Positions 1,313 to 17,759 of a stretch of 64,000 bases of DNA are shown here, one piece after another (positions within the stretch are counted from its first letter, which is position 1; each line of letters starts with the position of its first letter). The notes beneath the pieces were generated by a model. The model saw only the letters and a program-made list of their open reading frames with translations. It was not told the DNA's origin and ran no database searches. The DNA is from a virus, in the IMG/VR virus record IMGVR_UViG_3300029788_000344. One strand, given 5' to 3'. A program made the translations under genes and the position numbers.

Positions 1313-3100
1313 ATGGATCAGATTTTTAGCAATACCACGCTGACAGTCAATCAGCTCATAGAGAAAATTGACACGGGAGAACTCGGACTCCCGGAGCTTC
1401 AGCGTCCCTTCATTTGGAAGGATTCAAAGGTCAGAGACCTTTTTGATTCGCTCATGCGTGGTTATCCCATAGGTTATCTTATGCTGTGGGAATGTCCTTC
1501 CCTTGAAAAGAAAAAGTCCATCGGTGTTGATTTACATAGCTATGATTCTCCTAAAGAGGTCATCATCGACGGTCAGCAGCGTCTGACGTCCCTTTACGCC
1601 GTAATGAAGGGCAAGAAAGTTATCAACTCCAAATTCGATGAGAAATCCATCATTATCTCCTATAATCCCTTGCAGGACAAGTTTGAGGTCGGTTATCAGG
1701 CAACGAAGAAAGATCCCGAGTGGATTTATAATATCAGCGATGTGTACACCACTTCCAGCTCTTTCAAGTTTATCAATAGTTTTATTAAGCGCTTGTCTGA
1801 GTACCGAGAGTGCAAAGGCGGAGTGTTAACCGAGGCAGAGCAGGATACGATCTCCGAAAACATCAACGCTATTGTGAATCTGAAGAATCACACACTTCCC
1901 GTATTTGATATCAAGGCGAACGCAGAGGAAGAAGATGTGTCTGAAATCTTCGTTCGTGTAAACTCCGGCGGCGTTTCCCTGAAGCAAAACGACTTTATTT
2001 TGACACTTCTTTCCCTTTACTGGGATGAAGGCCGCAAGGAAATTGAAGAATTCAGCAAAGAATCCACCTTCCCCACAAAGGGTAAGACAACCTCCTATAA
2101 TCAGATTACCACGGTTGCTGCACAGGATCTGATCCGTGTTGTTATGGCATATGCCTTTGACAGGGCGAGGCTGAAATACGGCTACAAACTCTTGCGTGGT
2201 GCAGATTTTGATAAACGTGGTGCCGTGGATGGAGAGCTCCGCATCCAACGTTTTGATACGCTGAAAGATAAACTGCCCGATGTTCTGGATGTTCATAGCT
2301 GGCATGAATTCCTGAAGGCAATCATGAACGCCGGATACTTATCCGGAGATCTGATCCTGTCTGGCAATGCTATTTTCTACTCCTATGCGTTTTATCTTAT
2401 AGCTAAGCACAGGTTTCATGCCTCTTACAATGAGAATATGCATCTCACCTCGCTGTGGTTTTTCTATGCTTCATTGGTTTCTCTCTATACCGGTTCCTTC
2501 GAATCAACGGTAGAAAGCCATTTGAACAGTATAAAAGATCTATCAACACTTAAGGAGTACAAAGACTTCATTCTTTCAAGGGTGAATGAGCGTCTTACGA
2601 ATGACTATTTCGATATTACGCTTGTCGGCTCCGAGGGGTTGGCTGTTTCCGGTAAGGGCAATAACGCATGGAATGCCTATGTTGCGGCTTTGAACATCAT
2701 GGACGCCAAGATCCTCTTTTCTAAGAGCAATTTGTTGGTTTCGAAGTTGTTTGAACCCGGAACAGATGGTAATAGAAAATCACTGGAGAAGCACCATCTC
2801 TTCCCGAAAGCTCATATGAAAGCACAGGGCTATACTGACGCAAAAATCAATCAGATGGCCAACTACGCTTTCATCGACTGGAAAGACAACATGGATATTC
2901 TTGATGATGCACCTTCTGTCTACTATCCGATTGTGTGCGAGGGCAGAAGTGACGAAGAAATCCTTCGTATGGAAGAGGAGAATGCTCTTCCGCACGGATG
3001 GGAGAATATGCCCTACGAGGATTTCCTTGTGGAGCGCAGGAAGCTGATGGCAGCAAAAATCAAGCAGGCATTTGACCTGTTAAAGAAAAACGTAGAATAA
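1313..3100 (+). CDS. GmrSD-like type IV (modification-dependent) restriction endonuclease; DUF262 (ParB-like, DGQQR) plus DUF1524 (HNH-like)
   Basis: The N-terminal region has LPELQRPFIW and IIDGQQRLTSL, which are DUF262 motifs. The C-terminal region has EKHHLFPKAH, a DUF1524 His-Me finger motif. The length is 595 aa. Confidence 0.8.
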   Translation: MDQIFSNTTLTVNQLIEKIDTGELGLPELQRPFIWKDSKVRDLFDSLMRGYPIGYLMLWECPSLEKKKSIGVDLHSYDSPKEVIIDGQQRLTSLYAVMKGKKVINSKFDEKSIIISYNPLQDKFEVGYQATKKDPEWIYNISDVYTTSSSFKFINSFIKRLSEYRECKGGVLTEAEQDTISENINAIVNLKNHTLPVFDIKANAEEEDVSEIFVRVNSGGVSLKQNDFILTLLSLYWDEGRKEIEEFSKESTFPTKGKTTSYNQITTVAAQDLIRVVMAYAFDRARLKYGYKLLRGADFDKRGAVDGELRIQRFDTLKDKLPDVLDVHSWHEFLKAIMNAGYLSGDLILSGNAIFYSYAFYLIAKHRFHASYNENMHLTSLWFFYASLVSLYTGSFESTVESHLNSIKDLSTLKEYKDFILSRVNERLTNDYFDITLVGSEGLAVSGKGNNAWNAYVAALNIMDAKILFSKSNLLVSKLFEPGTDGNRKSLEKHHLFPKAHMKAQGYTDAKINQMANYAFIDWKDNMDILDDAPSVYYPIVCEGRSDEEILRMEEENALPHGWENMPYEDFLVERRKLMAAKIKQAFDLLKKNVE

Positions 3101-3257: not shown

Positions 3258-5795
3258 ATGAGCGCAAAGGAAGCAAAGGCCCGAATAAAGATCAATAAGC
3301 TGCTCGAGGCCGCTGGCTGGCGGTTCTTTGATGATGAGAATGGCTCGGCTAATATTCAAGTGGAAGCCAATGTCAAAATCACGAAGAAGCAATTTGATGA
3401 CTTTGGCGAGAATTTTGAAAAAGTGAAGAATGGGTTTATCGATTTCCTGCTTCTTGATGAGCATGGAAAGCCCTTTATTGTCCTCGAAGCAAAATCAGAG
3501 GATAAAGATCCCCTTGTTGGCAAAGAACAGGCACGAGCATATGCCAAGAGCAATTTCGTGAAGTATGTAATTCTGTCGAACGGAAACATTCATTACTTCT
3601 GGAATATCTACAAAGGGAATCCTCAGATTATTCTTTCTTTTCCGACATATGAAAGCGTTCGGGAAAGCAAGGCTTTGAATGCTGACCCTTCCAGACTTTA
3701 CAACGAAGAGATTACGTCGGATTATATTGCTGTAGTTCGTGAACCACGTTATGTAGAGGCACCAGAATATAAAAACCCAGATACACGGGCGCAGTATCTA
3801 AAAGACCGTGGTTTACGGATGATGCGCAAATACCAGGTCAACGCCATCAAAGCCCTCCAGCAATCTGTGAGAGAAGGAAATCAACGCTTTCTCTTTGAAA
3901 TGGCAACAGGAACAGGGAAAACGCTTACTTCCGCAGCGGTCATTCGCTTATTCTTGCGAAGCGGTAACGCCAATCGTGTTCTCTTTTTGGTGGATAGAAT
4001 TGAACTTGAAAACCAAGCAAAGAAAAACTTTATCAATTACCTGAAGCCCGATTACGAAACCGTCGTTTTCAAAGAACATACCGAGGATTGGCGCAAAGCT
4101 GATATTGTTGTCTCCACAGTTCAGACACTTGCATATAACAACAAATACAAAACCGTGTTCAAGCCTACGGATTTTTCACTGATTATTGCAGACGAAAGTC
4201 ATCGTTCAATCAGCGGAAACAGCCGTGCTGTATTTGAGTACTTTATTGGATATAAGCTTGGCTTGACTGCTACGCCGAAGGACTATCTAAAAAACGTGGA
4301 TACTGATGACCTTGCGGCAAACGATCCTCGTGCTTGGGAGCGGAGGCAACTGCTCGATACATATCGCATATTCGGCTGCGAGAGTGGAGAACCTACTTTC
4401 CGGTATTCATTGATTGACGGAGTAAATGATCCCGACGGCCCTTACCTTGTGAATCCCACTGTTGTCGACGCCAGGACGGATATTACAACACAACTCCTTG
4501 CCGATGAAGGATACGCCGTTTTGCGCTCCGGAGATGAACAGGACGAAGACGAAGAGGAACCCTTCTTCGCACGTGACTTTGAGAAGAAGTTCTTCTCTGA
4601 CGAGACGAACAAGGTATTTGTCAAAACCTTTATGGACAATGCTCTGCGTGATCCGTTGACCGGCGAAATCGGTAAAGGCATCGTGTTCTGTGTCAGCCGG
4701 AAACATGCTGCGAAGATCACACAACTTCTCAACATCTATGCCGATAAGATGTTCCCGGATATGTACTACTCTGATTTTGCCATGCAAATCACATCCGACG
4801 TTCAGAACGCTCAGGAATATACGATAAACTTCCAGAACAATAATCTGAGTGGAACAACCAAGTTCCTCGAAGGATACCGATCTTCCAAAACTCGTATCTG
4901 TGTGACCGTTGGCATGATGACCACAGGATATGACTGTGAAGATCTGCTGAATATCGGACTGTTTCGTCCCATATTCTCTCCGACGGACTTCATTCAGATC
5001 AAAGGCCGTGGAACCCGAACCTACACCTTCAACTATTCAGAAAGCAAAGGCGGTGCAGTAGAAAACCATACAGCGCCAAAGGATACCTTTAAGCTGTTTG
5101 ACTTCTTTGGAAACTGTGAGTATTTTGAGGAGAAATACGACTACGATGAAGTCATAAAGCTGCCTCGTCTGGGAAGCGAGAGTACCGGAGCCGGTGGGGG
5201 CCCGGTAAGCGTTTCTGCGTTTGAGAATTTCGATCCGGATCCGCTGAAGACGATGACCGAAACAAAGGTCGGACTCCAAGGCATGAAGATTGACCGTATG
5301 TTCTTTGAAAAATTCGAAGACGAGGTCAAAAAGGATGAAACGGCAAAAGAGCAGTACGAGCAAGGCAATTATGCTGCTGCCCAGCGATATATTGAAGACA
5401 CCTATCTTCATAAGCCTGCCGAGTTCTACACTTGGGACAAGCTTCGCCGTGCAACGGGTGTGGATCGCCGTGTCACTGTGCGAGAAATGCTGGATAAGAT
5501 ATTCGACGCAATTCCGTCCTTCAAGAGTAAGAAAGAGCTGGTCAATGACGAGTTTGACGGCTACCTTCTGACCTGCGACGTTCCTGCGGGAGATTATCAC
5601 GAAATACGCCGCTTCTTTGAGACGTACCTGACTGACAAGGATGTGCGTCGAGCCATTGAGGATAAGAAGTTCCAGCTTCTCGGAACGCAGATCCCGAGCT
5701 ATACATTCTCCGACTTAAAGCGGTTGGGAGTCGCCAATATGAACAGCGTCATCGGCTACGTCAATGACAATGTCAATCTATCCAGATTTATGTGA
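3258..5795 (+). CDS. hsdR: Type I restriction enzyme R subunit (HsdR-like, short form) with an N-terminal PD-(D/E)xK nuclease and an SF2 helicase
   Basis: The HSDR_N-like N-terminus KINKLLEAAGWRF carries D-x-n-EAK (DFLLLDEHGKPFIVLEAKS). Helicase motif I is FEMATGTGKTLT and motif II is IIADESHRS. The start is set at ATG 3258 behind AAGGGGGA; the track ORF begins at 3186. Confidence 0.8.
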   Translation: MSAKEAKARIKINKLLEAAGWRFFDDENGSANIQVEANVKITKKQFDDFGENFEKVKNGFIDFLLLDEHGKPFIVLEAKSEDKDPLVGKEQARAYAKSNFVKYVILSNGNIHYFWNIYKGNPQIILSFPTYESVRESKALNADPSRLYNEEITSDYIAVVREPRYVEAPEYKNPDTRAQYLKDRGLRMMRKYQVNAIKALQQSVREGNQRFLFEMATGTGKTLTSAAVIRLFLRSGNANRVLFLVDRIELENQAKKNFINYLKPDYETVVFKEHTEDWRKADIVVSTVQTLAYNNKYKTVFKPTDFSLIIADESHRSISGNSRAVFEYFIGYKLGLTATPKDYLKNVDTDDLAANDPRAWERRQLLDTYRIFGCESGEPTFRYSLIDGVNDPDGPYLVNPTVVDARTDITTQLLADEGYAVLRSGDEQDEDEEEPFFARDFEKKFFSDETNKVFVKTFMDNALRDPLTGEIGKGIVFCVSRKHAAKITQLLNIYADKMFPDMYYSDFAMQITSDVQNAQEYTINFQNNNLSGTTKFLEGYRSSKTRICVTVGMMTTGYDCEDLLNIGLFRPIFSPTDFIQIKGRGTRTYTFNYSESKGGAVENHTAPKDTFKLFDFFGNCEYFEEKYDYDEVIKLPRLGSESTGAGGGPVSVSAFENFDPDPLKTMTETKVGLQGMKIDRMFFEKFEDEVKKDETAKEQYEQGNYAAAQRYIEDTYLHKPAEFYTWDKLRRATGVDRRVTVREMLDKIFDAIPSFKSKKELVNDEFDGYLLTCDVPAGDYHEIRRFFETYLTDKDVRRAIEDKKFQLLGTQIPSYTFSDLKRLGVANMNSVIGYVNDNVNLSRFM

Positions 5796-5804
5796 GGAAT
5801 CGCT

Positions 5805-8282
5805 ATGCTGAACTTTGATGTAAAAAAGAAAATCAATACCCTGCGGGATATCCTTGTCGGTAAGGTTCCCGATCCGAAGGCGCAGGTGGAGCAGATCACC
5901 ATTGCTCTGATATATAAGTTCATGGATGACATGGATCTGCAAGGAGCAGAATTCGGCGGGGCACGTGTTTTCTTCTCCAGTGATTATAAAGATTACGCTT
6001 TTTCTCAAATCATGCTGCCGGAGCACAGCGCCCAAGATAGGCTGAATTTGTACGCAGAAGGCATCGATAAAATGACCAACAATCCCGATCTGCCCAAACT
6101 GTTCCGGGATATTCTGCGCAACGCCTATATCCCATATCGTGATCCGGAAACGCTTAACCGCTTCTTAAAGGAAATTGCGGAATTCTCCTACGAGGACAGC
6201 GAAGAGCTAGGTAATGCCTTTGAATACCTGCTTTCCATTATGGGCAGTCAGGGCGACGCAGGCCAGTTCCGTACGCCCCGCCATATCATCGACATGATGG
6301 TGGAGATCACGGCTCCCGCAAAAAATGAATCCATCCTTGATCCTGCCTGCGGAACGGCAGGGTTCTTGATCAGCGCCTATAATTACATCAAAAAGAGCAA
6401 TCTGGACGAACATGGTAAATCCACGCTGGTGGCGGATGACATGACCCGGATGACTAAAAACTTTGCTGGCTATGATATTTCACCGGACATGGTGCGGCTT
6501 TCCCGTGTCAACATGTATCTGCACGGCTTTACATCGCCGAACATCAGCGAATACGACACGCTGACCAGCTTGGAGAAATGGGATGATAATTTCGATGTCA
6601 TTTTCTCCAATCCTCCGTTTATGACGCCAAAGGGCGGCATCACCCCGCATAACCGTTATCAGGTTTCTGCGAAGCGTGCGGAAGTCTTGTTTGTGGACTA
6701 TATTGCTGAGCATTTGAATCCCACCGGGCGAGCTGCCATTATCGTACCGGAGGGTATCGTGTTCCAGTCACAGACTGCGTATAAGAACCTCCGCAAGATG
6801 CTTGTGGAAGGAAATTACCTGTACGGCGTCATTTCCCTTCCTGCGGGTGTATTCAATCCCTACAGCGGCGTCAAGACCAGTATCTTGTTGATTGATAAGA
6901 CGCTGGCAAAAGAGCGGGACAGTATTCTCTTTGTAAAGCTGAATAACGATGGCTTTGACCTTGGTGCCCAACGCCGGGAGATCAAAGGCAGCGAGATTCC
7001 AGATGTGGTCAACATCTTCAAGGATTATCAAAAGGGTGTTGATGTTACCGGGCGGGAGAATGCTATTCTTGCGAAAAAGAGTGAAATTGCAGAACAGGAC
7101 TTTATTCTTGTTGGAGAAAGATATAAAACCGCTTTAGCAACTTTAGCAGCATGGCCTATCGTTAAACTGGGAGATGTTTGCGAGATAAACCCGAAAAAGT
7201 CTGAAATCAGCAATCTACCACCCGAAACAATAGTTTCATTTGTCCCAATGGCAACAGTTAATGAACATCGAAAGAGCTTTGTACCTACTGAAGAGCGAAC
7301 TCTATCAGAAGTTTACTCGGGATATACTTATTTCCAAAATGGTGATGTTCTTCTGGCGAAAGTAACCCCTTGTTTCGAAAATGGAAAGTCGGGGATTGCA
7401 ACAGGATTAACAAATAATATAGGATTTGGATCAAGTGAGTTTTTTGTGCTCCGTCCAAATCCTGATCGTGTGCTGTCAGACTATATTTACCGCCTTATAA
7501 GTACAGATGCATTTATTGAACAAGGAAAAACAAAAATGACCGGGACGGGTGGGTTGCAAAGAATCCCGAGAGATTTCATTAGCAGCTATTCAATCCCGCT
7601 CCCTCCGCTTGCTGTACAGGAAGAAATCGTTTCCGAGATCGAAAGCTATCAGAGAATCATAGACGGCGCCCGCCAGGTCGTGGAGAACTATAAGCCGACA
7701 ATCAAGATTGATCCGGCGTGGGAAACTGTGCCTTTGGGCGAAGTGTGCGTTACATCCTCAGGAGGGACACCAAAAAGTTCAAACAGAGAATACTATGAGA
7801 ACGGTACTATCAATTGGTTGAAGAGTGGCGAAGTGGCAAATGGCTATATCTATGCCACGGAGCAAAAGATTACTGAAAAGGCACTGCAGGAATCTTCTGC
7901 AAAAGTGTTTCCGCCAGAGACTGTCGTGGTAGCAATGTATGGCGCAACAGCAGGACAAGTAGGAATCTTGAAAATTGAGAGTTCTACCAATCAAGCGGTT
8001 TGTGGGATATTGCCTAATAAGATGTTTGAACCCGATTTCTTATATCTTTACTTGCTTTCTAAACATGACTATTTCGTGTCTCAGTCAACAGGAGGAGCTC
8101 AACCTAACATATCTCAAATGTTGATAAGGAAAACGCTTGTACCCATTGTCCCAATTGACGAGCAAAAAAGGATTGTTAGTGAAATCAGTATTGAAATGTC
8201 TATTGTCGAACAGAATAAGCGCCTGATTGAAATCTTCCAGCAGAAGATCAAAGACAAGATTGCCGAGGTCTGGGGAGCGTAG
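5805..8282 (+). CDS. hsdM: Fused type I methyltransferase and specificity subunit (HsdM-HsdS fusion with two target-recognition domains)
   Basis: It has an HsdM_N-type N-terminus, the FRTPRHIIDMM motif, the SAM site DPACGTAGFL and the catalytic NPPF motif. Two HsdS-like target-recognition domains follow (WPIVKLGDVCEINPKK... and WETVPLGEVCVTSSGGTPK...) with conserved spacer repeats. Confidence 0.8.
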   Translation: MLNFDVKKKINTLRDILVGKVPDPKAQVEQITIALIYKFMDDMDLQGAEFGGARVFFSSDYKDYAFSQIMLPEHSAQDRLNLYAEGIDKMTNNPDLPKLFRDILRNAYIPYRDPETLNRFLKEIAEFSYEDSEELGNAFEYLLSIMGSQGDAGQFRTPRHIIDMMVEITAPAKNESILDPACGTAGFLISAYNYIKKSNLDEHGKSTLVADDMTRMTKNFAGYDISPDMVRLSRVNMYLHGFTSPNISEYDTLTSLEKWDDNFDVIFSNPPFMTPKGGITPHNRYQVSAKRAEVLFVDYIAEHLNPTGRAAIIVPEGIVFQSQTAYKNLRKMLVEGNYLYGVISLPAGVFNPYSGVKTSILLIDKTLAKERDSILFVKLNNDGFDLGAQRREIKGSEIPDVVNIFKDYQKGVDVTGRENAILAKKSEIAEQDFILVGERYKTALATLAAWPIVKLGDVCEINPKKSEISNLPPETIVSFVPMATVNEHRKSFVPTEERTLSEVYSGYTYFQNGDVLLAKVTPCFENGKSGIATGLTNNIGFGSSEFFVLRPNPDRVLSDYIYRLISTDAFIEQGKTKMTGTGGLQRIPRDFISSYSIPLPPLAVQEEIVSEIESYQRIIDGARQVVENYKPTIKIDPAWETVPLGEVCVTSSGGTPKSSNREYYENGTINWLKSGEVANGYIYATEQKITEKALQESSAKVFPPETVVVAMYGATAGQVGILKIESSTNQAVCGILPNKMFEPDFLYLYLLSKHDYFVSQSTGGAQPNISQMLIRKTLVPIVPIDEQKRIVSEISIEMSIVEQNKRLIEIFQQKIKDKIAEVWGA

Positions 8283-8284
8283 TA

Positions 8285-9591
8285 TGGACAAGTTGGAAAA
8301 AGGGAAAAGGGCAACCGAGAAGACTCTTGAGAAAATTGGCGATGTGCCGATTAGTGAAATACCTGCTGAAATGATAGAACGAGGACGAGCAGCAACTGAG
8401 TCCCTGATTGCAAAATATGGTCATTTAACTGTGAGAGCAATTAATGCTGTCACTTTTAAAGATGAGCTTCGTGACGCATTTCCGGTATTCAACGATGAAC
8501 TTGATACTGATTTTCTTCTGGAATTGCTATATTTTTTCCCAATTGACAAGACATATATATCTACCGGAAGCTATGATCAATACCTCTATGATCTTGAAAA
8601 AACGGTAATAGATAATTATGATTCCGGGAATTATCAGGTTTCGTTTTTCTACGCTCATCTTATCTTCATGAGCTATGTATATTACTGTGTCGAAAAGGCA
8701 TACGACATTGAACCGGATAGAATGAAGGATGTCTTTTATCCGATCAATTCATATCATGGAAAGGATGACAAGCCTGATCTTGAGGACTATGGAAATGTCT
8801 ATGAATTCAGCAAGATACCCGAGAAAGATATTTTCAAAGTTTTTCATATCATGGGCATGGATGATGCTACGATAAAGGAGTTTTCTCGCTACATAAGCAG
8901 CCGGGATGACTATGCTCACGCAACCGGAAAGGGAAATATCTCCGAACAAGAATTCCGTCAAAATATCAAAACAGTTATCGGCAATATGAACACTTTAAGA
9001 GGCTTGTTCTTACCATATCTGAAATCTCGTTACGTCGAGTTTATGCTGGAACGTTTGGATGTCGACTATGATGTGGTTACAGACAATTTCAATGATTTTG
9101 TATTTGATAACTCTCTCTCGATTTGCGATCTTGATTATTTGTGTCATTTAGGGGTGAAGAACCTACAGGAAAGTAACGAGACACTAAGAACGAATTATCA
9201 GTCTACTCGGAATGTTCATTGTGCATTTATCGAGTATTGCAATGACAATGACGGTATTGCACTACCGGATGGGTATCCGTCGCTGAGGAATGAGAAGTAC
9301 TTGTTCTATCGATATAAGCATCATGCAAAAGACTATATTGAGAACGAGCTTGGAATCAACGAATATCGCTGTGTAAAAGATGGTGGAGAGTTTCCGGTAT
9401 ATGAATGCCCGGAATGCGGTGTGGAACAGCTTGCCTATGATGCGGATACCCATCGCTATCATTGCTTCGCCTGTGATGAGAATTTTACAGATGGAGATTT
9501 GGAATTCTGTGAGAGGTGCGGAAGTCTCATGCGTCGGAATGGAGAGCCGTCGATTTGCGATAATTGCATTGAAGACATGATGAGGGACTAA
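8285..9591 (+). CDS. Hypothetical protein (435 aa) with a C-terminal double zinc ribbon, embedded between the restriction-modification and pAgo genes
   Basis: Its ATG lies immediately after the hsdMS stop codon. The C-terminus reads CPECG...CFACD...CERCG...CDNC. No family was recognised. Start chosen at the ATG at 8285; the track ORF begins at 8227. Confidence 0.5.
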
Positions 9592-9629
9592 TTACTGCGT
9601 CGAACACCATGGAAACTATGGGAGGACCT

Positions 9630-12600
9630 ATGCTTACACAAGAACAATTCATTCGAAATTTTAGCGTGATGGCAAACGGAGAAGTTGACTTCTTTCTCGG
9701 CGCAGGTGCCTCCATAGCTTCGGGCATTCCTACTGGCGGCGACTTGATCTGGGAATTTAAGCGTACCCTGTACTGTTCTGAATGCGGAATATCTACGGAG
9801 AAATATAAAGATTTGGCTCTGCCATCCACTCGAAAGATGCTGCAAGAATACTTTGACCGAAAAGGAGGCTATCCAGAGCAATACGCACCAGAGGAATACT
9901 CATTTTATTTTGAGCAGTGTTATAACGATCCTTTAGCCAGAAAGAGGTTTATTGAGAGTATCGTTTCTGCCCGGAAGCCGTCGATTGGCTATCTATGCTT
10001 GGCAGAAGCCGTGGCGAAGGGAAAGGTGAAGAATGTTTGGACGACCAATTTTGATCCTTTGCTCGAAAATGCACTTAATCAGCTTTATCCAATAAACAAT
10101 GTTCTCGTTTGCAGCGAAGCAAACCGGGACAGTATACGCTCTCTGAATCCTCAGTATCCGGTAATCGGAAAACTACATGGTGATTATCGCTATGATTGGC
10201 TGAGGAACACAGAAAGTGAATTACAGCAGCTGGAAGAAAAGCTCAAGGAGTATGCGGCAAGCCAGATGGCGGACAAGCAGTTGGTGGTAATTGGATATTC
10301 CGGGAATGACGAGTCTATCATGTCTTTTCTGGAAAGTTGTGTAGACAATCCAGCAACATTATCTAAGGGCCTTTTATGGGCGATACGGAAAGGAAGCCGG
10401 GTAAATCCGAGAGTAAACGGTTTGCTTGAAAGAACAAAGAAAAACGGCAAGAACGCTGAAATACTTGAGATCGACGGTTTTGACCAACTGTTGTTTTCGG
10501 TCTATCAGATGCAGAACTATCATAACGAGGATATTGATGGGCAAGGTCGCGTGTTGCATGAAAAGAGCAATGTTCGCCTTTCTGGTCAGCCGGTTGATTC
10601 TTTTGTAAAACTGAATGCATATCGGGCTGAAGGTTGTCCGCTCTGCAATGTGTTTGAGACCGATATTACAAGCTGGAAAGAATTACGTACAATTATCGCA
10701 GACAGTGGTGTACTGGCGGCCCTGTATAGCAAACACATCTATGCCTTTTCTTCGCAAGAAAAGCTTGAGACCGTATTCCAGACGCACATTTTATCTCAGA
10801 TAACGATGGAAGAGGTTCCAGATAGAATCATATACAAATACGACTCTATCTATATCGGACTGATTTATCAATTAATTAAGCAAACGCTCATCTCTAAGGG
10901 CATGCATTCCTTTGCAAAGAACAAAGTTTACAATCCCAATTCTCGCAGAGACGACAAAGGTTATCAAGTCTTTGATGCTGTGGAGATTGCTGTTAGCTTC
11001 ATAAATGGAACGTTACACTTGAATCTTTTGCCGACAGTTCATGTGCGCAACGGCAGGGGTGATCGTTTAGATAGAGAAACATACCAGAGCCAAGTTAATC
11101 GCATTGTTTCAAGCATATATAATCAGCAATACAATGAAAAACTCCATTTTTGGGAATCTCTCTGCCTTACTTCTGGAAAAATGTTCTTTGAAAACGATGG
11201 CTTTTCGATCTCCTTCGTCGTTCCAGCCGTCAGTCTTGGCGGCAATAATAGACGCGCTAAATGGCTATCTATGCCATCTTGCAAATATGAAGAGCCGTTG
11301 ATGTGTTTTTCTGATACAGACAAGTCAAAGCAGACGGTGAATCAACTCAAAGGGCTATGCCAATATGGACCAATCGATTGCTCATACATGAGAAGTGGTG
11401 CTACTCGCCCATCTGTACGGCTCGCAGTTCTTTCACCAGATCGTGACATGGATAAAATTCTGGCACACCTGAACAGGCTCAATACCCATGTACAAAACAG
11501 TGGAAGAGACAACTTCCTGCCTCATTATGAAGGGTTTGAACGTGTTTATCGGCGTTCCCTTTCTGTTCCAACGAAGGAGCAAAGAGACATCTGCATCAGC
11601 TATAATGTAAACACAATTCTAAAGAAGACGCCAGCAGAGTTTCTCGCTTTTATGAAACGCGGGATTGATTATTATTCTCTCCATGCTGCTGACTTCGATA
11701 TTCTCGTTATTTTTATTCCAAAAGATTTTGCGCCTTTTCGCACCGCTTCAGTGATTTCTCCTGATTTTAATCTGCACGACGCACTAAAGCTCTATGCAAC
11801 AGAAAAAGGGATTAAACTTCAACTGATAGAAGAGAAATCAGTAAACAGCTATGACCCCTGCAAGGTGATGTGGGGATTATCCACAAGCTTGTATGCCAAA
11901 GCCACCGGCGTTCTATGGCACCCGGAAGCAATTCAGAACGATACAGCCTACATAGGCATCAGCTATGCTTTTTCAGAGGAAAAAAGAATCTGTATCGGCT
12001 GCAGCCAGCTTTTTGATTCGACTGGGACCGGAATCAGGATGGTGCTTAGGAAAATTAATAATCCGATTCTTCTTGGCAGAAGCAATCCCTACATGCGAGA
12101 AGATGATGCACGCTCTATGATGACAGAGTTGCGTGAACAATACTATCATTCAGCACCTGTAAATACACTAAGGAGAGTTGTTATCCACAAAACTACACCA
12201 TTTATACGAGAAGAAATCACTGGCATAATGCAAGCCTTTAGTGGCATTGAAGTTGAGCTTGTGCAGATACAAGATTACTGCTCATGGCGAGGAATTCGTT
12301 TTGGAGCAGACCCGGGAAAAACTGCATACGGTTTTCCTGTAAAACGAGGAATGGCTGTAAAGCTGGATCGAGACAGTTTCCTTTTATGGACACACGGTTG
12401 CGTGATTCATCCTGAACTATCTGGGCCTCACAATTACTATAAGAGCTCACGTGGTATCCCTGCCCCTTTGCTGGTAAGACGCTTTGCTGGGAATGCGAGT
12501 GGTGATACTCTGGCTAAAGAAATTCTTATGCTCACAAAAATGAACTGGAACAGCGGCGATAGCCTATATAAAACACTTCCTGTTACATTGGACTTCGCTA

Positions 12601-12674
12601 AAGTATTAGCGCGGATGTCAAAACAGGAAGAAGCAATTTTTGATAAAGCATATGATTTTAGGTTTTTTATGTAA
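9630..12674 (+). CDS. SIR2-APAZ-Argonaute fusion (short prokaryotic Argonaute, SPARSA-like, single chain)
   Basis: The N-terminus has the SIR2 motif FFLGAGASIASGIPT. The middle region has a MID-like H/K/Q motif (LHDALKLYATEKGIKLQ). The C-terminus has PIWI-like strands (AYIGISYAF, RVVIHKTTPF, GMAVKLDRDSFLLWTHG, LPVTLDFAKVLA) with no intact DEDX catalytic tetrad, as expected for short pAgos. GGAGG precedes the ATG at 9630. Confidence 0.75.
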   Translation: MLTQEQFIRNFSVMANGEVDFFLGAGASIASGIPTGGDLIWEFKRTLYCSECGISTEKYKDLALPSTRKMLQEYFDRKGGYPEQYAPEEYSFYFEQCYNDPLARKRFIESIVSARKPSIGYLCLAEAVAKGKVKNVWTTNFDPLLENALNQLYPINNVLVCSEANRDSIRSLNPQYPVIGKLHGDYRYDWLRNTESELQQLEEKLKEYAASQMADKQLVVIGYSGNDESIMSFLESCVDNPATLSKGLLWAIRKGSRVNPRVNGLLERTKKNGKNAEILEIDGFDQLLFSVYQMQNYHNEDIDGQGRVLHEKSNVRLSGQPVDSFVKLNAYRAEGCPLCNVFETDITSWKELRTIIADSGVLAALYSKHIYAFSSQEKLETVFQTHILSQITMEEVPDRIIYKYDSIYIGLIYQLIKQTLISKGMHSFAKNKVYNPNSRRDDKGYQVFDAVEIAVSFINGTLHLNLLPTVHVRNGRGDRLDRETYQSQVNRIVSSIYNQQYNEKLHFWESLCLTSGKMFFENDGFSISFVVPAVSLGGNNRRAKWLSMPSCKYEEPLMCFSDTDKSKQTVNQLKGLCQYGPIDCSYMRSGATRPSVRLAVLSPDRDMDKILAHLNRLNTHVQNSGRDNFLPHYEGFERVYRRSLSVPTKEQRDICISYNVNTILKKTPAEFLAFMKRGIDYYSLHAADFDILVIFIPKDFAPFRTASVISPDFNLHDALKLYATEKGIKLQLIEEKSVNSYDPCKVMWGLSTSLYAKATGVLWHPEAIQNDTAYIGISYAFSEEKRICIGCSQLFDSTGTGIRMVLRKINNPILLGRSNPYMREDDARSMMTELREQYYHSAPVNTLRRVVIHKTTPFIREEITGIMQAFSGIEVELVQIQDYCSWRGIRFGADPGKTAYGFPVKRGMAVKLDRDSFLLWTHGCVIHPELSGPHNYYKSSRGIPAPLLVRRFAGNASGDTLAKEILMLTKMNWNSGDSLYKTLPVTLDFAKVLARMSKQEEAIFDKAYDFRFFM

Positions 12675-12743
12675 TGAAAGCATTTGTACCAACAAAAGGC
12701 GCAGACTAAACAGATAATCCATTTTTGTCTGCGCTATTGCAAA

Positions 12744-13091
12744 TCAGTCTATTATTCTCTCAACCACCGTCTCCGTTACTCTCGCCCTGATCCCATTCAT
12801 CCTCCGCACCTACTCCATGGGATCCTCCACCTTGAGCTGCTCGGTGACGCCTTCGGAGGCGGCATAGTCTTTAACTAACCGAAGGAAAAGAGCGTTGGCT
12901 TGTTCTTCGACGTCGGCAAGGTGGGAGCGGAGCTGACCCGTGGTTTTCAGGTTGGTATAGAGAATGGGACGATGTTCCCGTAGATAGCGCAGCCTGCGCT
13001 GGCCCCATACGTCAACGGGACGCTCTTCTTCGGGTGGTAATTGAAGATCCAGCAGGAAATAATCGCCCTGCTGCGTGTAGGTGCCGCCCAT
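12744..13091 (-). pseudogene. tnpV: tnpV-like gene interrupted by a single in-frame amber codon (TGG to TAG at the conserved MEW position)
   Basis: The ORF 12810-13091 ends EDPME*. Reading through the TAG gives VRRMNGIRARVTETVVERIID*, which is collinear with the C-terminus of the 166-444 paralogue (MEWVGRMNSIRSRAEEIVFSELVYC). Confidence 0.55.
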
Positions 13092-13241
13092 CTACTCAAA
13101 CATTTTTTCATAGTAAAACTCCCTTTGCACGCTCATCTTACAAAGGAGAGTTGGGTCGACCAATGTGCGATTTGTCATAGCGAACTAACACATAAGAAAG
13201 AGCGAGAGGCTTTTGCCTCCCGCTCAGACTGGTAGAGCTAT

Positions 13242-13409
13242 TTACTTTTTCTGCCAACCGTTTCCGGGCTTCTGCGTAGGCGGCAATCTGTCGCCGGGAT
13301 CAATGTGGACAATTCTCGGATCATCTACTTTCCCGCCACGAGGGCCTACTTCTACATAAGTTCCTGGCTGCTGGTTGTCAGTGCCGGGTTTAATAGGTTT
13401 TGCCATTCG
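13242..13409 (-). CDS. YjzC-like small protein (55 aa)
   Basis: The protein reads MAKPIKPGTDNQQPGTYVEVGPRGGKVDDPRIVHIDPGDRLPPTQKPGNGWQKK. AAAGGAGG precedes the ATG at 13409. The Gly/Pro-rich YjzC-type composition was recalled from memory. Confidence 0.45.
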   Translation of the reverse strand, partial: RMAKPIKPGTDNQQPGTYVEVGPRGGKVDDPRIVHIDPGDRLPPTQKPGNGWQKK

Positions 13410-13500
13410 GTGTACCTCCTTTCTTTGAAGATACACGTGTTATACCATATATATGGTCAAATGTCAAACACTAACGCAATATATTGTGTTCTTTGGGTAG

Positions 13501-13803
13501 TTATTCCTCCAACAAGCTCTCAAACGGCGCGTCGTCGCTCAGAAAGGTATCCATCATGAACCGTGCGCCGAGGCGGAAGCCGGTGATGAAAGTATCCACC
13601 TCGGATTCGCCCATGAACTCGGCGTAGGCGTTGCAGAAGCGGAGAAACAGAGCTTTGTTTTCGCCAGCGAGCTGCTCGGTGAGCTTTTCCTCCAGGTCGT
13701 TCAGTGAGTCGGACGCCTTCTTCACAGGGCTCTTAGGGCGATAGCCGCGATCCTGCGGGTCGATGTTGCCGTAGTACAGCTCCTCAATGATATTTCCCCT
13801 CAT
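13501..13803 (-). CDS. Hypothetical protein (100 aa)
   Basis: The ORF is tightly packed with the downstream HTH gene and is co-directional. No motif was recognised. Confidence 0.4.
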   Translation of the reverse strand: MRGNIIEELYYGNIDPQDRGYRPKSPVKKASDSLNDLEEKLTEQLAGENKALFLRFCNAYAEFMGESEVDTFITGFRLGARFMMDTFLSDDAPFESLLEE

Positions 13804-14384
13804 TGCCCGTCACTCCATTTCTGCAGCTCCCAGAGCCGGTCAATATGGCGGCGGGATTTGCGGGTGGTTGCGTTATGCTCATCCGTGGAGAGCCAGTCGA
13901 TCAGACAGCACTTCGGGATCATATACTTGTGCTGCAGCGCCAAGGCGCGGAGCTTGCCGAAGCGAATCCACTCGCAGACCGTGTGGCGGTTGTAGCCGGT
14001 AAACTCCACGATGGCGGACACGTCGATCACGTCCGGATAGTCGGCCAGCTTGCTTTCATAGTAGCGCCGCGTCTTCTGCGGATCGTTGGGGAGGGGCGGC
14101 TGAATGCGGATCCTGTAGGGCTTCACGTCTTCGTTTCCATATTTGTACCAGCTGGTGGGTACGATGTATCGGCTGGGGTTGATCTCCCGGTTGATCATAA
14201 AGTCGATGACGTCGCGTTTCTTGATGGCGTAGCAGCGGGTTTTCTTCCCGGTGCAGACGTGGGGGATCAGATTGAACTGCAGCAGATAGTGCGCCGTCCG
14301 TTTGCTGATATGGCAGACCTTGCGCAGCTGCTCCTTGTTCATGATCTCTGGGTATTGTTTGAGTTCCTCTGCATCGTATGTCAT
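13800..14384 (-). CDS. DNA-binding protein with two excisionase/MerR-type HTH modules (putative Xis or regulator)
   Basis: Start set at the MTYDAEEL ATG (14384) behind AAGGAG. Two HTH-like segments are present (KEQLRKVCHISKRTAHYLL and AIVEFTGYNRHTVCEWIRFGKL). Confidence 0.5.
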   Translation of the reverse strand: MTYDAEELKQYPEIMNKEQLRKVCHISKRTAHYLLQFNLIPHVCTGKKTRCYAIKKRDVIDFMINREINPSRYIVPTSWYKYGNEDVKPYRIRIQPPLPNDPQKTRRYYESKLADYPDVIDVSAIVEFTGYNRHTVCEWIRFGKLRALALQHKYMIPKCCLIDWLSTDEHNATTRKSRRHIDRLWELQKWSDGQ

Positions 14385-14830
14385 GACGAAGCTCCTTTCC
14401 GTTTTTTGCGGTCCGAAAGGGTGCTTCATCGGTGCTGTCGGGGTCTCTGTTTTCTTGCCTGACTTCTTGCAAACGCGCAAGAACGGCGGCTTTTTACGCA
14501 AGAACGCAGTTTTATTTGAACTCTGGGGCACTTTAAATCGCCTCTGGCAGATACGGGTCGGAATGTCCGAAACTCCTTGCGGTGCCTGGGTTTCCGGCTC
14601 TTGACAATGCGACCTGGAACGACCTGCTCCAACCGTGAATCTGCCAAAGTCTTACAACACTCGAAATCCTCCGCAGCTCAGGCTTTTTCGTCCACCCGTT
14701 TCTCTTTGTTTTCAAGGGTTTTCGCGGGTTCTAAAAACTAAATATTTCGCTGTTCTAACACGCCGTTCTAACATTTTGGTTTTCCCTCTTTTTTGAGGTT
14801 CAAGGTGTTCTGACCGTGTTTGACATACAC

Positions 14831-14919
14831 GGAGAGGTATCGAAGTGGTCATAACGGGGCTGACTCGAAATCAGTTTGACGGCAACGTCACATGGGTTCG
14901 AATCCCATCCTCTCCGCCA
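14831..14919 (+). tRNA. tRNA-Ser (anticodon CGA), class II with a long variable arm
   Basis: The 7-bp acceptor stem is GGAGAGG/CCTCTCC. The anticodon stem GCTGA/TCAGT carries the loop CTCGAAA. The variable arm is TGACG-GCAA-CGTCA, the T arm is ATGGG-TTCGAAT-CCCAT, and the 3' end is GCCA. Confidence 0.85.
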
Positions 14920-15048
14920 AAAAAGTCCAGTAAACTCAAGGGTTTGCTGGACTTTCCTTTTTTGTCCGACTCCTTGAATTTTCCGATTTTCGCGTTGGAA
15001 CGGCGTTAGAATTGGCCGTTTTTGCGTTAGAACAGCGTGTTTTTTTAG

Positions 15049-16326
15049 TCAAAAACCCGGGTTCAAATCCGGTTCTGTTATTTTGCCCTGCTCGGTTACA
15101 TTTTTCCAGCGGCTCCCGAAATCATCTGACCTCGGAAGGAGCATTCCCTGCTCCATGGCCTGCGCCGAGGATATTTTGGATCTGTAGTCGAGATGGGCAT
15201 AAATATTAGCGGTCGTGCTAAAATCCGAGTGGCCGAGCCATTCCTGGATTTGCTTCAGCGGTACGCCGTTGGCCAGCAGCAAGCTGGCGCAGCTATGGCG
15301 AAGATCATGAAACCGCATCTTCGGCATCCCGTGTTTTGCTATGTACTTAGGAAAGTACTCCGTCAAATAGTTCGGGCGCATGCGCTCTCCCAGCTCGTTC
15401 ACAAAGACATAACCGTCGTAATCGTAGTTATAGCAATTGCCGCAAACCTTCTTGTTTAGCTCCTGGGCCTCTTTTACCTTTTGAAAGTAGTCGCGAAAGC
15501 TCCCCACCAGGGGAAGCGTTCTCAGGCTCGATTTGGTCTTAGCAGAATCCTGCTCGATGATTTTCATGGTGCCGTCGATCGTTGCTTCAGTGACTGTTCG
15601 TTTGATGGTCAGCGTTCCGCGATTGAAATCGATCGCATCCCACTTTAGCCCAAGCACCTCACCACGGCGTAGTCCATAAAACGCAGCAACCAAAACCGGA
15701 AGTTCCAGCCGCGTTCCCTTGACAATCTCGAACAACTTCTGCATTTGCTCCGCATCAAGGAATGTCGGCTGAAACGAGTTCTTCCTCGGCCTATCCACCT
15801 TCATAGCAACATTCTGCGGTACCATGTCGGTTTTCATCGCATACTTCAAAGCCTGGTAAATCACCGCATGATAGTGGATAACGGAATTCGGCGTAACGGT
15901 TTTCAGCTTCTCCGTATAAAACTGTTGGATGTGCCGAGCCTCCAGCTCTTTTAAGGTTAGCTCTTTTTTGCGGAAATACGGGCCAATCGTGCTTTTGACC
16001 ATCCCTTGATACGAGCCGAATGTTGCGGGCTTGATTCTCGCTCTGACAACCTCAAGCCATTGATCCAAATAGTCTGCAAAGAGCATATTGGAGTTTAATT
16101 CTCCAGCAGCCGGAGGAATCTCAAATTCGCTGCGAATACGAATAAGTTCCTGTTCTGCCCGGCGCTTATTACCTTTTTGGGGCAATCCTGTCGATACCCA
16201 TTTTTGATGGCGTTTTCCTGCTGCGTCCCGATAGCTGAGAACGGCATAATAGTAGCCGTTCTTCAGCGCAAGAGTTCCTGATACCATTTTTGTTACCTCC
16301 GGAATCATTGAATTGTATACAGGCAT
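15049..16326 (-). CDS. int: Tyrosine site-specific integrase (phage integrase family)
   Basis: The C-terminal catalytic region reads HDLRHSCASLLLANGVPLKQIQEWLGHSDFSTTANIYAHL. It lies 130 bp from the 3' end of tRNA-Ser. An alternative start at 16287 has a better GGAGGT RBS. Confidence 0.9.
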   Translation of the reverse strand: MPVYNSMIPEVTKMVSGTLALKNGYYYAVLSYRDAAGKRHQKWVSTGLPQKGNKRRAEQELIRIRSEFEIPPAAGELNSNMLFADYLDQWLEVVRARIKPATFGSYQGMVKSTIGPYFRKKELTLKELEARHIQQFYTEKLKTVTPNSVIHYHAVIYQALKYAMKTDMVPQNVAMKVDRPRKNSFQPTFLDAEQMQKLFEIVKGTRLELPVLVAAFYGLRRGEVLGLKWDAIDFNRGTLTIKRTVTEATIDGTMKIIEQDSAKTKSSLRTLPLVGSFRDYFQKVKEAQELNKKVCGNCYNYDYDGYVFVNELGERMRPNYLTEYFPKYIAKHGMPKMRFHDLRHSCASLLLANGVPLKQIQEWLGHSDFSTTANIYAHLDYRSKISSAQAMEQGMLLPRSDDFGSRWKNVTEQGKITEPDLNPGF

Positions 16327-16395
16327 CTCCCACCGACATCTATATTTTACTCGGTCGGTGGGAGATACTCAAATATGCGATCATCAAATCAGAGT

Positions 16396-16626
16396 TCAAA
16401 TCGCACTTTTTCCCTGATCCATGACATACTCAATGACATTGACCTTGGGTATCCGGAAAGCATTTCCGATTTTCAGGCCTCTGATATACCCGTCATTGAT
16501 CAAGTCATAGGCAAGATGGCGGCTGATACCAAGCATCGATTGGAGCTGAGTGATGTTCACGATGTCCGGATACTCCGGAAACATCATCAAGTACAGTTCT
16601 CTCAGCTCAGACTTTTTCATTGCCAT
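16396..16626 (-). CDS. xis: Excisionase-type HTH DNA-binding protein (Xis-like)
   Basis: The 76-aa protein has the HTH ITQLQSMLGISRHLAYDLINDGYIRGLKIG and a GAGGTGG RBS. It is immediately upstream of int, as in Tn916-like elements. Confidence 0.65.
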   Translation of the reverse strand: MAMKKSELRELYLMMFPEYPDIVNITQLQSMLGISRHLAYDLINDGYIRGLKIGNAFRIPKVNVIEYVMDQGKSAI

Positions 16627-16844
16627 TCGTCTGCCACCTCATCTTTCTTTTCCGCTTTGGAGTAGATGATGAAATCGTACCCGTTGCGATAATTACAGAA
16701 ATCACAGCGCTCTTTTGCTTGTCCGTGATTTTCCCGCACGATCTTATAGATTCCTGTGTCAAGGAACTGACCAAGGCAAACCGGGCAAAGGCACAAATAC
16801 ATCGGTCTATTCAAAACGGAGTTCTTCTCGCTCAAATGGTTCAT
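16617..16844 (-). CDS. Small cysteine-rich protein (75 aa; CxC...CxxC...CxxC)
   Basis: An AAAGGAGC RBS is present. The cysteine pattern is LCLCPVCLG ... CDFCNY. The gene overlaps the xis start. Confidence 0.4.
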   Translation of the reverse strand: MNHLSEKNSVLNRPMYLCLCPVCLGQFLDTGIYKIVRENHGQAKERCDFCNYRNGYDFIIYSKAEKKDEVADEWQ

Positions 16845-16909
16845 ATTCTGCTGCTCCTTTGTTTTCGAAATAATCCCTTCACTTGGTAGGCAACGAAAAC
16901 AGGCAAAAA

Positions 16910-17693: not shown

Positions 17694-17759
17694 CAAAAAA
17701 AGGCCACCGACAAGGCAGACCTATAGATAGAACTATAGTGTCTTACCTTGCCGGTGGCC
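17694..17759 (-). terminator. Rho-independent terminator for minus-strand transcription
   Basis: The stem GGCCACCGACAAGG ... CCTTGCCGGTGGCC has 14 bp with 1 mismatch. An A8 run sits on the plus side, giving a T-run after the stem on the minus strand. It lies downstream of the 17938-19254 minus-strand gene block. Confidence 0.55.

Follow-up and report, generated by a model that had tools for sequence, protein, structure and literature searches.

An Argonaute-like gene at the end of a run of restriction-modification (RM) genes raises two questions: what its product does, and whether it acts alone or as a part of the RM system beside it. In the window, by which we mean the whole stretch of 64,000 nucleotides that was analysed, an intact open reading frame spans positions 9609-12674 on the plus strand. 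A Shine-Dalgarno-like GGGAGGA, read from the sequence at 9620..9626 on the same strand, lies 3 nt upstream of an ATG at 9630, and translation from this ATG to the stop codon at 12672-12674 gives a coding sequence (9630..12674, plus strand) for a protein of 1014 aa. A 100% identical protein of the same length (P0001, with 453 member sequences) was present in a public protein collection; a previous sequence-only reading of this DNA had counted 1015 aa. The same reading had described the product as a fused SIR2-APAZ-Argonaute, and this description is borne out by the sequence, the individual residues and the predicted fold.

The PADLOC model for fused SIR2-APAZ-pAgo proteins (PDLC02420) matched the protein with 1449.7 bits (E = 0), aligning aa 1-1014 to positions 3-1010 of the 1010 in the model, whereas the next-best PADLOC model scored only 717 bits. 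Comparison with PDB sequences using phmmer aligned the two chains of the Geobacter sulfurreducens complex to the two ends of the protein, GsSir2 (8in8_B) to aa 2-310 (E 1.4e-45) and GsAgo (8in8_C) to aa 554-1014 (E 9.2e-66), and E values of this order exclude a chance match. An AF2 model (pLDDT 87.4, pTM 0.74) was compared with known structures using Foldseek, giving TM scores of 0.86-0.89 to GsAgo at about 30% identity, and 0.68 to GsSir2-APAZ at about 21% identity over 589-600 columns with whole chains. The MID/PIWI fold on which the sequence-only reading had made its assignment depend is therefore present in the predicted structure. The open reading frame, PADLOC, the PDB alignments and the AF2/Foldseek comparison agree on a single polypeptide with the domain order SIR2, APAZ, MID, PIWI. 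SIR2_2 was the sole Pfam match, with no match to the Pfam Piwi and PAZ models, and NCBIfam held no model for the protein.

Relatives are encoded at 258 loci, and 68 further full-length fused proteins were recovered from genome loci; residue conservation was counted over 69 fused homologues. The relatives come from Oscillospiraceae and other Clostridia of the rumen and gut, with Bacteroidota relatives only about 36% identical. Megablast found no match to the gene in complete E. coli genomes, tblastn against plasmids returned only two-gene split relatives of about 30% identity, and tblastn against phages matched only SIR2-domain fragments. On sequence grounds, namely the fused-model score and the fused relatives, the protein is probably a member of clade S1A ("SPARSA-A"), a name given in 2022. 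Two fused proteins, PgSir2-Ago and JomSIR2-APAZ-Ago, have already been tested in vivo (bioRxiv 10.1101/2021.12.14.472599; PMC9097488), and PDB searches returned no single-chain fused pAgo structure, so that the previous remark that the fused form is less studied was fair. By its homology, the gene is an uncharacterised member of an already described anti-phage and anti-plasmid family.

The SIR2 NADase domain, assigned from Pfam SIR2_2 and the alignment to 8in8_B, occupies aa 1-310 (9630..10559, plus strand). The GAGAS motif that had been noticed earlier at the N-terminus is the NAD-binding GxGxS loop, at aa 24-28 (nt 9699-9713). The predicted catalytic residues N140 (codon at 10047-10049), H183 (10176-10178) and D227 (10308-10310) align to N142, H186 and D230 of GsSir2 in the PDB alignment, and each is invariant in the fused homologues (69/69). 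Mutation of N142 or H186 (PMC11452484), or of D230 (bioRxiv 10.1101/2021.12.14.472599), kills the activity of GsSPARSA.

The stretch between the SIR2 and MID domains (aa 311-553; 10560..11288, plus strand) is an APAZ region resembling N/L1/L2, as judged from Foldseek and an AF2 pLDDT of about 90. It is only 243 aa long and aligns by Foldseek with the whole PAZ-less GsSir2-APAZ chain, leaving the protein without a PAZ domain. The MID domain follows at aa 554-770 (11289..11939, plus strand), defined by alignment to GsAgo and TtAgo. As the phmmer comparison with PDB sequences gave no match to long active pAgos, TtAgo, taken from plasmid pTT27, was compared by hhalign, at probabilities of 17-47% and E values of 1e-3 to 2e-4. 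Despite these weak scores, hhalign recovered four residues of the MID pocket and two positions of the PIWI tetrad. The pocket for the 5'-phosphate of the guide would consist of H716 (codon at 11775-11777), K720 (11787-11789), Q731 (11820-11822) and K757 (11898-11900), which align to H166, K170, Q181 and K207 of GsAgo and, in the weakly scoring hhalign comparison, to R418, K422, Q433 and K457 of TtAgo. These HK-type residues are kept in 68-69 of the 69 fused homologues, in keeping with the H/K/Q pocket proposed from the sequence.

The PIWI domain (aa 771-1014; 11940..12671, plus strand), delimited by the alignment to 8in8_C and ending in YDFRFFM, is catalytically dead. D546 and D660 of TtAgo correspond to T855 and K991, which are found in 67/69 and 66/69 homologues, respectively. 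The strand expected to carry the first aspartate reads GISYAFS, with S778 or A780 at the position in question, and E512 falls close to R817 at low confidence; given the weakness of the hhalign match (E 2e-4), the register of these first two tetrad positions is uncertain. No acidic residue was found at the tetrad positions in this alignment, so the absence of a DEDX tetrad that had been read from the C-terminus stands. With neither a PAZ domain nor a DEDX tetrad, a long catalytically active pAgo is ruled out.

A dead PIWI domain, in a gene occupying the variable end of this mobile element, could also indicate a decaying or non-functional passenger. However, a dead PIWI defines all short pAgos (PMC9097488), and every catalytic and guide-binding residue is retained. 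The 1014-aa frame is intact in the window and at five further loci (L007, L008, L009, L014 and L022), with zero indels. The ratio dN/dS was 0.07-0.08 overall, indicating strong purifying selection on all four domains, with the highest values for APAZ (0.10-0.14) and the lowest for PIWI (0.024-0.044), so that the domain that is catalytically dead is the most constrained. The dN/dS analysis refutes the passenger reading for practical purposes, and we regard it as exceedingly improbable.

We consider it very probable that the gene product is a SPARSA-A (clade S1A) sensor-effector of abortive infection that works on its own. The types of guide and target and the NADase activity of the 1014-aa protein are assigned here by homology. 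From the conserved residues and the fold, APAZ, MID and PIWI would together form a PAZ-less, slicing-dead Argonaute cleft, in which the H716/K720/Q731/K757 pocket and the free C-terminus may hold a small guide by its 5'-phosphate; judging from homologues, this guide would be RNA derived from abundant transcripts of the invader. If the protein behaves as its two-chain Geobacter homologue, the PIWI lobe would sense the guide paired with complementary single-stranded invader DNA, and the SIR2 domain would then be released and re-packed, probably through oligomerisation, with H183 brought into line with N140. Hydrolysis of NAD+ might follow, again by analogy with the Geobacter system, and its depletion would halt the infected or plasmid-bearing cell. 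Among fused proteins, JomSIR2-APAZ-Ago lowered NAD (PMC9097488), and PgSir2-Ago on its own gave about 400-500-fold protection against phage in E. coli and blocked none of four test plasmids (0/4) (bioRxiv 10.1101/2021.12.14.472599). The oligomerisation step itself differs between studies of the Gs SIR2-APAZ/Ago complex, with no oligomerisation in one structural study (PMC10474274) and tetramers in another (PMC11452484).

The MID positions N714, E734, S740 and K745 correspond to D164, N184, R190 and N195 of GsAgo, its readers of a 5'-AU guide; of the fused homologues, 69/69 have E734 and 68/69 have K745. The preference for a guide may therefore differ from that of GsAgo. Residues of the Gs tetramer interface are also altered, Y168 and R296/Q297 being R166 and Q293/M294 here, and the mode of oligomeric activation is thus not confidently transferable. 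Such substitutions would suit a SPARSA-like sensor with a nucleic-acid logic other than that of GsSPARSA, for instance one guided by DNA, directed at RNA or favouring a different 5'-nucleotide, and perhaps activated through another assembly. The plasmid specificity of PgSir2-Ago, which is unlike that of Gs and Cc (bioRxiv 10.1101/2021.12.14.472599), points the same way, as does the existence of crystallised short pAgo complexes with guide DNA (8z92, a Foldseek match). We nevertheless hold a different logic to be unlikely: GsAgo and the protein described here have in common the pocket for the 5'-phosphate, the motif at the C-terminus and the cleft as a whole, and every characterised SPARSA or SPARTA system uses an RNA guide and a single-stranded DNA target (PMC9097488, PMC11452484).

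The second question concerns the neighbours of the gene. Two TnpV genes on the minus strand (166-444 and 12810..13091; Pfam TnpV, E 6e-31 and 5e-31 for the two copies) flank the region. When repeats were sought to delimit the cassette, the sole outcome was a 59-nt direct repeat, 76% identical, within this pair of genes; inverted repeats were absent. Inside these borders, a small HTH gene (1063-1275, from its ORF translation) precedes a gene for a GmrSD_N/DUF262 protein of 595 aa (1313..3100, plus strand; Pfam GmrSD_N E 7.8e-33, PADLOC HEC-05), a candidate type IV restriction enzyme. An HsdR-like type I restriction subunit of 845 aa follows (3258..5795, plus strand; Pfam HSDR_N_2, ResIII and SWI2_SNF2, and an EcoAI-like NCBIfam match below the cut-off), and its start at ATG 3258 agrees with homologues of 844-845 aa. 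The gene after it encodes an HsdM::HsdS fusion of 825 aa with two target-recognition domains (5805..8282, plus strand; Pfam N6_Mtase and Methylase_S, PADLOC MTase_I and Specificity_I).

The pAgo gene had been placed directly after the RM genes, but a further gene intervenes (8284..9591, plus strand), encoding a HEPN-like all-alpha protein of 435 aa with a C-terminal double zinc ribbon. No family could be assigned to this protein at the sequence level, and a literature search combining 'RiboL-PSP' with restriction-modification found nothing. We considered it as a possible pAgo accessory and rejected the idea: its homologues always follow the HsdR and HsdM::HsdS pair, whether a pAgo is present or not, and it is absent at 76 of 79 genome loci with fused pAgo homologues. 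It thus belongs to the RM module, as the conserved third member. HsdR, HsdM::HsdS, the HEPN/Zn-ribbon protein and the pAgo are encoded by four tightly packed plus-strand genes, with gaps of 9, 1 and 38 nt and the pAgo last. No plus-strand terminator-like site was found at the junctions 5795/5805, 8282/8284 and 9591/9630, the weak ones listed being located within the coding parts of hsdR and hsdM::S, and there was no strong promoter in 9346-9629. The common strand, the short gaps and the terminator-free junctions fit the earlier proposal of a single operon, with co-transcription of the RM, HEPN and pAgo genes a plausible outcome.

This arrangement allows the pAgo to be viewed as coupled to the RM/HEPN module, as a dependent second-line effector and not an autonomous sensor: like PrrC beside EcoprrI, it would fire only once the type I RM system had been inhibited or overrun. 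Besides the packing of the four genes, the order RM, HEPN, pAgo recurs at four other loci (L009, L012, L022 and L093), where the pAgo is as little as 63% identical, and at 16 of 60 loci the fused pAgo gene comes last in a same-strand series of genes of the type I, type III, LlaJI or BREX kind. Orthogroups of HsdS, methyltransferase and type III REase have also been found in pAgo operons, at >=5% in one or more groups, in the survey of Ryazansky 2018, where 32% of the operons with SIR2-APAZ-pAgo contained nucleases and 33% contained DNA-binding proteins (PMC6299218). Yet at 44/60 fused pAgo loci the contiguous upstream run contains neither RM nor BREX genes, and RM linkage characterises this lineage of mobile cassettes and roughly a quarter of the loci with a fused pAgo, not the family. 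DNA similarity to the homologues at L007 and L014, which lack RM genes, begins at 9621-9630 and ends at the stop codon, so that the recombination breakpoints fall exactly on the borders of the pAgo gene. Elsewhere, the slot 3' of the RM/HEPN module carries unrelated genes, namely Hachiman, DUF3800, a DndB-like gene or Hypoth_Ymh; the position downstream of the HEPN/Zn-ribbon gene is a variable cargo slot. The capacity of PgSir2-Ago to protect E. coli alone likewise speaks against dependence (bioRxiv 10.1101/2021.12.14.472599), as does the statement of Koopal 2022 that, besides APAZ, no protein is specifically associated with short pAgos (PMC9097488). We therefore judge such coupling to be very unlikely.

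A related idea, which we consider unlikely, is that HsdR, HsdM::HsdS and the HEPN/Zn-ribbon protein constitute a conserved 'carrier' of Tn4451-like mobilisable elements in Clostridia, and that the effectors swapped into the slot, including the pAgo, need the RM operon for their expression or activation. If true, the cassette would be one integrated multi-layer system, not four neighbours. As the last of four packed genes in a TnpV-flanked mobile defence cassette, the pAgo is probably co-expressed with the type I RM system and mechanistically independent of it.

For the pAgo itself the value of these observations is confirmatory, adding a probable member of clade S1A, intact and under strong constraint, from uncultured Clostridia of the rumen and gut. 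The 1014-aa single chain is a handy subject for asking how SIR2 is released in cis and whether tetramerisation is general; it differs from Gs at both the interface residues and the 5'-AU readers. The more useful lead is the context, a clear natural case of a mobile element on which a restriction module has a constant HEPN partner and, downstream, a slot where defence genes are exchanged; the cassette could be used to find new defence genes and to test the co-regulation of stacked systems.

The closest known systems are PgSir2-Ago of Paraburkholderia graminis and JomSIR2-APAZ-Ago of Joostella marina, which, like the protein described here, are single SIR2-APAZ-MID-PIWI polypeptides of about 1000 aa with an HK-type MID and a dead PIWI, and for which the published phenotypes of clade S1A, phage protection (Pg) and lowering of NAD (Jom), were obtained. 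The protein in the window differs from them in that its relatives belong to Oscillospiraceae and other Clostridia, and in that this copy ends an RM-HEPN array within a TnpV-flanked cassette. The GsSir2/Ago system of Geobacter sulfurreducens (SPARSA, clade S1B; PDB 8in8, 8jkz and 8y80) is homologous in its two chains to the N-terminal SIR2 domain and the C-terminal half, and has in common the catalytic N/H/D, the H-K-Q-K pocket for the 5'-phosphate, an aromatic residue (Y359, F902 here) and the C-terminal YD(F/Y)RFFM. It is, however, encoded by two genes as two chains (587 + 473 aa), and its 5'-AU readers and tetramer-interface residues differ.

SPARTA (TIR-APAZ with a short pAgo, clade S2A) has a similar short pAgo fold (TM 0.74-0.83) and presumably a common logic of guide-dependent NADase activation, but its effector is TIR and not SIR2, it consists of two chains, and sequence similarity reaches only E 1e-9 to 1e-11. 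With SIR2_2 at the N-terminus and SPARTA pAgo chains only distant matches, identity with SPARTA is ruled out. The long-B pAgo RsAgo (PDB 5awh) aligns by Foldseek with APAZ, MID and PIWI over 775-817 columns, and PIWI is inactive in both; unlike the fused protein, RsAgo contains PAZ and lacks a SIR2 effector, and it acts by binding and not by depletion of NAD+. PrrC-EcoprrI and other RM-embedded HEPN genes (Anantharaman 2013, PMC3710099) are a model for the neighbouring 435-aa gene and not for the pAgo. Like PrrC-type genes, this neighbour encodes a HEPN-type Rx4H protein locked to a type I RM system, presumed to be a second line of defence, and unlike PrrC it has a double zinc ribbon instead of an ABC ATPase domain.

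The open reading frame containing the pAgo gene spans 9609-12674 (+) in the ORF list, and GGGAGGA, read from the window sequence at 9620-9626, lies upstream of the ATG at 9630. Translation from this ATG to the stop codon at 12672-12674 yields a protein of 1014 aa, and this start is supported by a public protein (P0001; 1014 aa, 453 member sequences) that is 100% identical to the pAgo protein. The coordinates 9630-12674 from the sequence-only reading were therefore retained, while its length of 1015 aa was corrected to 1014.

The pAgo protein matched the PADLOC model for fused SIR2-APAZ-pAgo proteins, PDLC02420 (Aga_SIR2-PNTD1-PNTD2), from end to end (residues 1-1014 against model positions 3-1010 of 1010; 1449.7 bits, E = 0). 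A Pfam scan returned SIR2_2 alone (residues 135-256), and no NCBIfam model was found for the protein. When all PDB sequences were searched, residues 2-310 matched GsSir2-APAZ (8in8_B; E 1.4e-45) and residues 554-1014 matched GsAgo (8in8_C; E 9.2e-66), the two chains of Geobacter sulfurreducens SPARSA (GsSPARSA); SPARTA and SPARDA pAgos came next with far weaker scores, and no single chain spanned both halves of the protein. An AlphaFold2 model generated from 67 homologues (mean pLDDT 87.4, pTM 0.74) was compared with the PDB using Foldseek, and aligned with GsAgo (target-normalised TM 0.86-0.89, E about 1e-37), GsSir2-APAZ (589-600 columns, TM up to 0.68) and the long-B RsAgo (775-817 columns). 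The fused SIR2-APAZ-pAgo architecture proposed earlier was thus borne out by PADLOC, by both Geobacter chains and by the fold, and these matches place a MID/PIWI fold, and not an unrelated family, in the C-terminal half.

Conservation was monitored across the window protein and 68 further full-length fused homologues taken from genome loci (34-87% identity; n = 69). The predicted SIR2 Rossmann motif, GAGAS, was located at residues 24-28. In the PDB-match alignments, N140, H183 and D227 correspond to GsSir2 N142, H186 and D230, and H716, K720, Q731 and K757 to GsAgo H166, K170, Q181 and K207; all were invariant in the 69 proteins except K720, which was kept in 68. GsSir2 N142 and H186 are catalytic, and tetramerisation aligns H186 in GsSPARSA (PMC11452484). 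The D230A mutation of GsSir2 results in loss of both NAD+ binding and defence (bioRxiv 10.1101/2021.12.14.472599), and H166, K170 and Q181 of GsAgo contact the 5'-phosphate (PMC10781750). We also aligned TtAgo from plasmid pTT27 to the fused-family profile with hhalign, which gave a weak score (E 2e-4). TtAgo R418, K422, Q433 and K457 fell exactly on H716, K720, Q731 and K757 in this weak alignment, so that the proposed MID-like H/K/Q pocket agrees with both GsAgo and TtAgo. The same alignment placed TtAgo D546 on T855 (present in 67/69 homologues) and D660 on K991 (66/69); the strand for the first Asp reads GISYAFS (S778 or A780), and TtAgo E512 fell near R817. No acidic tetrad was seen in the PIWI domain at the positions aligned to TtAgo DEDX, as the sequence-only reading had anticipated. 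The C-terminus (YDFRFFM) matches that of GsAgo (YDYRFFM), whose function is destroyed by a C-terminal tag (bioRxiv 10.1101/2021.12.14.472599).

Orthologues at five genome loci (L007, L009, L014, L022 and L008) contain 1014 codons each with zero indels. Nei-Gojobori dN/dS against the window gene was 0.07-0.08 overall for the first four, L008 being left out owing to saturation of synonymous sites; in these four, values were 0.024-0.044 in the dead PIWI domain and 0.10-0.14 in APAZ. The pAgo gene is under strong purifying selection.

A mechanism like that of GsSPARSA (PMC11452484) is the most likely for this protein. The MID pocket would take up a small RNA guide with a 5'-phosphate, and invader ssDNA would pair with the guide inside the APAZ/MID/PIWI cleft. 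A conformational signal would then free the SIR2 domain, whose activation, probably via oligomerisation, would result in NAD+ hydrolysis and abortive infection. The kinds of guide and target, the oligomeric state, the NADase activity and the phenotype are presumed here by analogy.

Upstream of the pAgo gene, all on the plus strand, are genes for a 70-aa HTH protein (1063-1275), a 595-aa GmrSD_N/DUF262 protein (1313-3100; PADLOC HEC-05), HsdR (3258-5795; 845 aa from ATG), an HsdM::HsdS fusion (5805-8282) and a 435-aa protein (8284-9591). A strong promoter-like site (993-1021; 11/12 matches, TG-extended) precedes the HTH gene. The GmrSD_N/DUF262 protein heading the cassette may be a type IV restriction enzyme that depends on modification, and its gene is set off from HsdR by a 157-nt gap and a hairpin (3104-3129). 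No strong promoter was seen in 9346-9629. The gaps separating HsdR, HsdM::HsdS, the 435-aa gene and pAgo are 9, 1 and 38 nt, and no plus-strand terminator-like site was found at these junctions, which fits the single operon proposed earlier; co-transcription from HsdR through pAgo is plausible but unproven. Contrary to what had been suggested, the pAgo gene does not lie directly after the RM genes, since the 435-aa gene intervenes.

The 247 homologues found for the 435-aa protein, none with a Pfam family, were always encoded downstream of an HsdR and HsdM::HsdS pair. Its AlphaFold2 model (pLDDT 86.3) is all-alpha with a double zinc ribbon at the C-terminus. R207-x4-H212, a HEPN Rx4-6H motif, was invariant across 65 homologues, 4 of which weakly matched Pfam HEPN_RiboL-PSP. 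This is in keeping with the 'second line' pattern that Anantharaman et al. (PMC3710099) described for HEPN genes linked to RM systems. The slot following it is occupied by SIR2-APAZ-pAgo in the window and at L009, L012, L022 and L093, and at other loci by HamA and a helicase (Hachiman; L087), DUF3800 (L088), an unknown 443-aa protein (L089), an N6_N4 methyltransferase and a DndB-like gene (L091) or Hypoth_Ymh (L094). Genes upstream of HsdR were also variable when window 3258-12674 was compared with L087, L088, L089, L091, L093 and L094 (GmrSD_N, DUF5655, DUF4238, DUF4357, AAA_14/DUF4143). Window DNA has HsdR, HsdM, the end of the 435-aa gene that encodes the Zn ribbon, and pAgo in common with L009 and L022, with 76-88% similarity in HsdR, HsdM and pAgo. 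The segment not in common (7125-9345) covers the target-recognition domains of HsdS together with the N-terminal portion of the 435-aa gene, where roughly 355 aa show 31-33% protein identity. Judging from these sequences, both regions appear to be diversifying in concert. This RM-HEPN module, with an exchangeable defence slot at its downstream end, is the most useful by-product of the analysis.

DNA similarity to two RM-less loci, L007 and L014, begins at 9621-9630 and ends at 12674, indicating that the pAgo gene travels as a unit of its own. Of the 60 fused-pAgo loci for which 3 kb or more lay upstream, 16 close a contiguous same-strand run with type I, type III, LlaJI-type or BREX genes and 44 do not. 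In other phyla (L074, L015, L019, L063), fused pAgo comes last in runs of genes on one strand, made up of BREX (PglZ-BrxL), LlaJI/AAA_5 or type III-like Mod-Res genes; an AAA_21 ATPase is embedded in one such run. HsdS, methyltransferase and type III REase orthogroups are among those in pAgo operons, and SIR2-APAZ-pAgo operons include nucleases (32%) and DNA-binding proteins (33%) (Ryazansky et al. 2018; PMC6299218). We consider it unlikely that pAgo depends functionally on the RM module.

Two minus-strand TnpV genes (166-444 and 12810-13091) bracket the defence cassette and have a 59-nt stretch in common (76% identity). Related cassettes adjoin DUF6809, HTH_17 and Mob_Pre relaxase genes, and that at L094 adjoins Mob_Pre relaxase, DUF6809 and TnpV; we take such neighbours to suggest a Tn4451-like mobilisable element. 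Metagenome contigs of several samples match window 1-14668 at 99% identity, and similarity stops at 14668. The region 14668-29290 contains a tRNA-Ser (14831-14919) and, on the minus strand, genes for a tyrosine integrase (15049-16326), a VirD4-type coupling protein/ATPase (22392-24233) and a VirB4-like ATPase (26747-29290), along with a sigma-70 region 4 protein and a LexA-like S24 repressor. Taken together, the tRNA-Ser, integrase, repressor and two ATPases point to an integrative conjugative element adjoining tRNA-Ser as the most likely identity of this region. A BREX type 4-like gene set was also observed at 50506-60923 (-), comprising BrxP (58575-60923; PADLOC 769 bits, PAPS-reductase domain), BrxC/PglY (54347-58561), PglZ (52013-54331) and BrxL (50506-51999; 678 bits), all on the minus strand, with a DndA/SspA-like cysteine desulfurase at 49178-50335. 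Large ORFs nearby (60984-63815, 40813-46796) gave no PHROGs or PADLOC match, and 40813-42459, the sole part put to Pfam, gave no Pfam match.

Relatives of the pAgo protein, searched in one genome per GTDB species, were found at 258 loci in Clostridia, Bacteroidota, Melainabacteria, Spirochaetes and others, the nearest being from rumen and gut Oscillospiraceae MAGs and Clostridiales bacterium NK3B98. GsAgo reads the guide 5'-AU through D164, N184, R190 and N195 (PMC10781750), whereas pAgo has N714, E734, S740 and K745 at these positions, with E734 invariant (69/69) and K745 nearly so (68/69) in the fused homologues. Similarly, Y168 and R296/Q297 of the Gs tetramer interface (PMC11452484) are replaced by R166 and Q293/M294. 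Because of these changes, the guide preference and activation assembly of GsSPARSA are not confidently transferable. Fused SIR2-APAZ-pAgo proteins were defined as clade S1A, SPARSA-A, by Koopal et al. (2022), who also found that JomSIR2-APAZ-Ago lowered NAD in E. coli (PMC9097488). The single-chain PgSir2-Ago protects about 400-500-fold against lambda-vir and SECphi27, and left four test plasmids unblocked (Zaremba et al.; bioRxiv 10.1101/2021.12.14.472599). The sequence-only reading was fair in calling the fused form less studied; PDB sequence and Foldseek searches gave no single-chain SIR2-APAZ-pAgo structure. The pAgo protein is an intact, uncharacterised and ordinary addition to an already described family.
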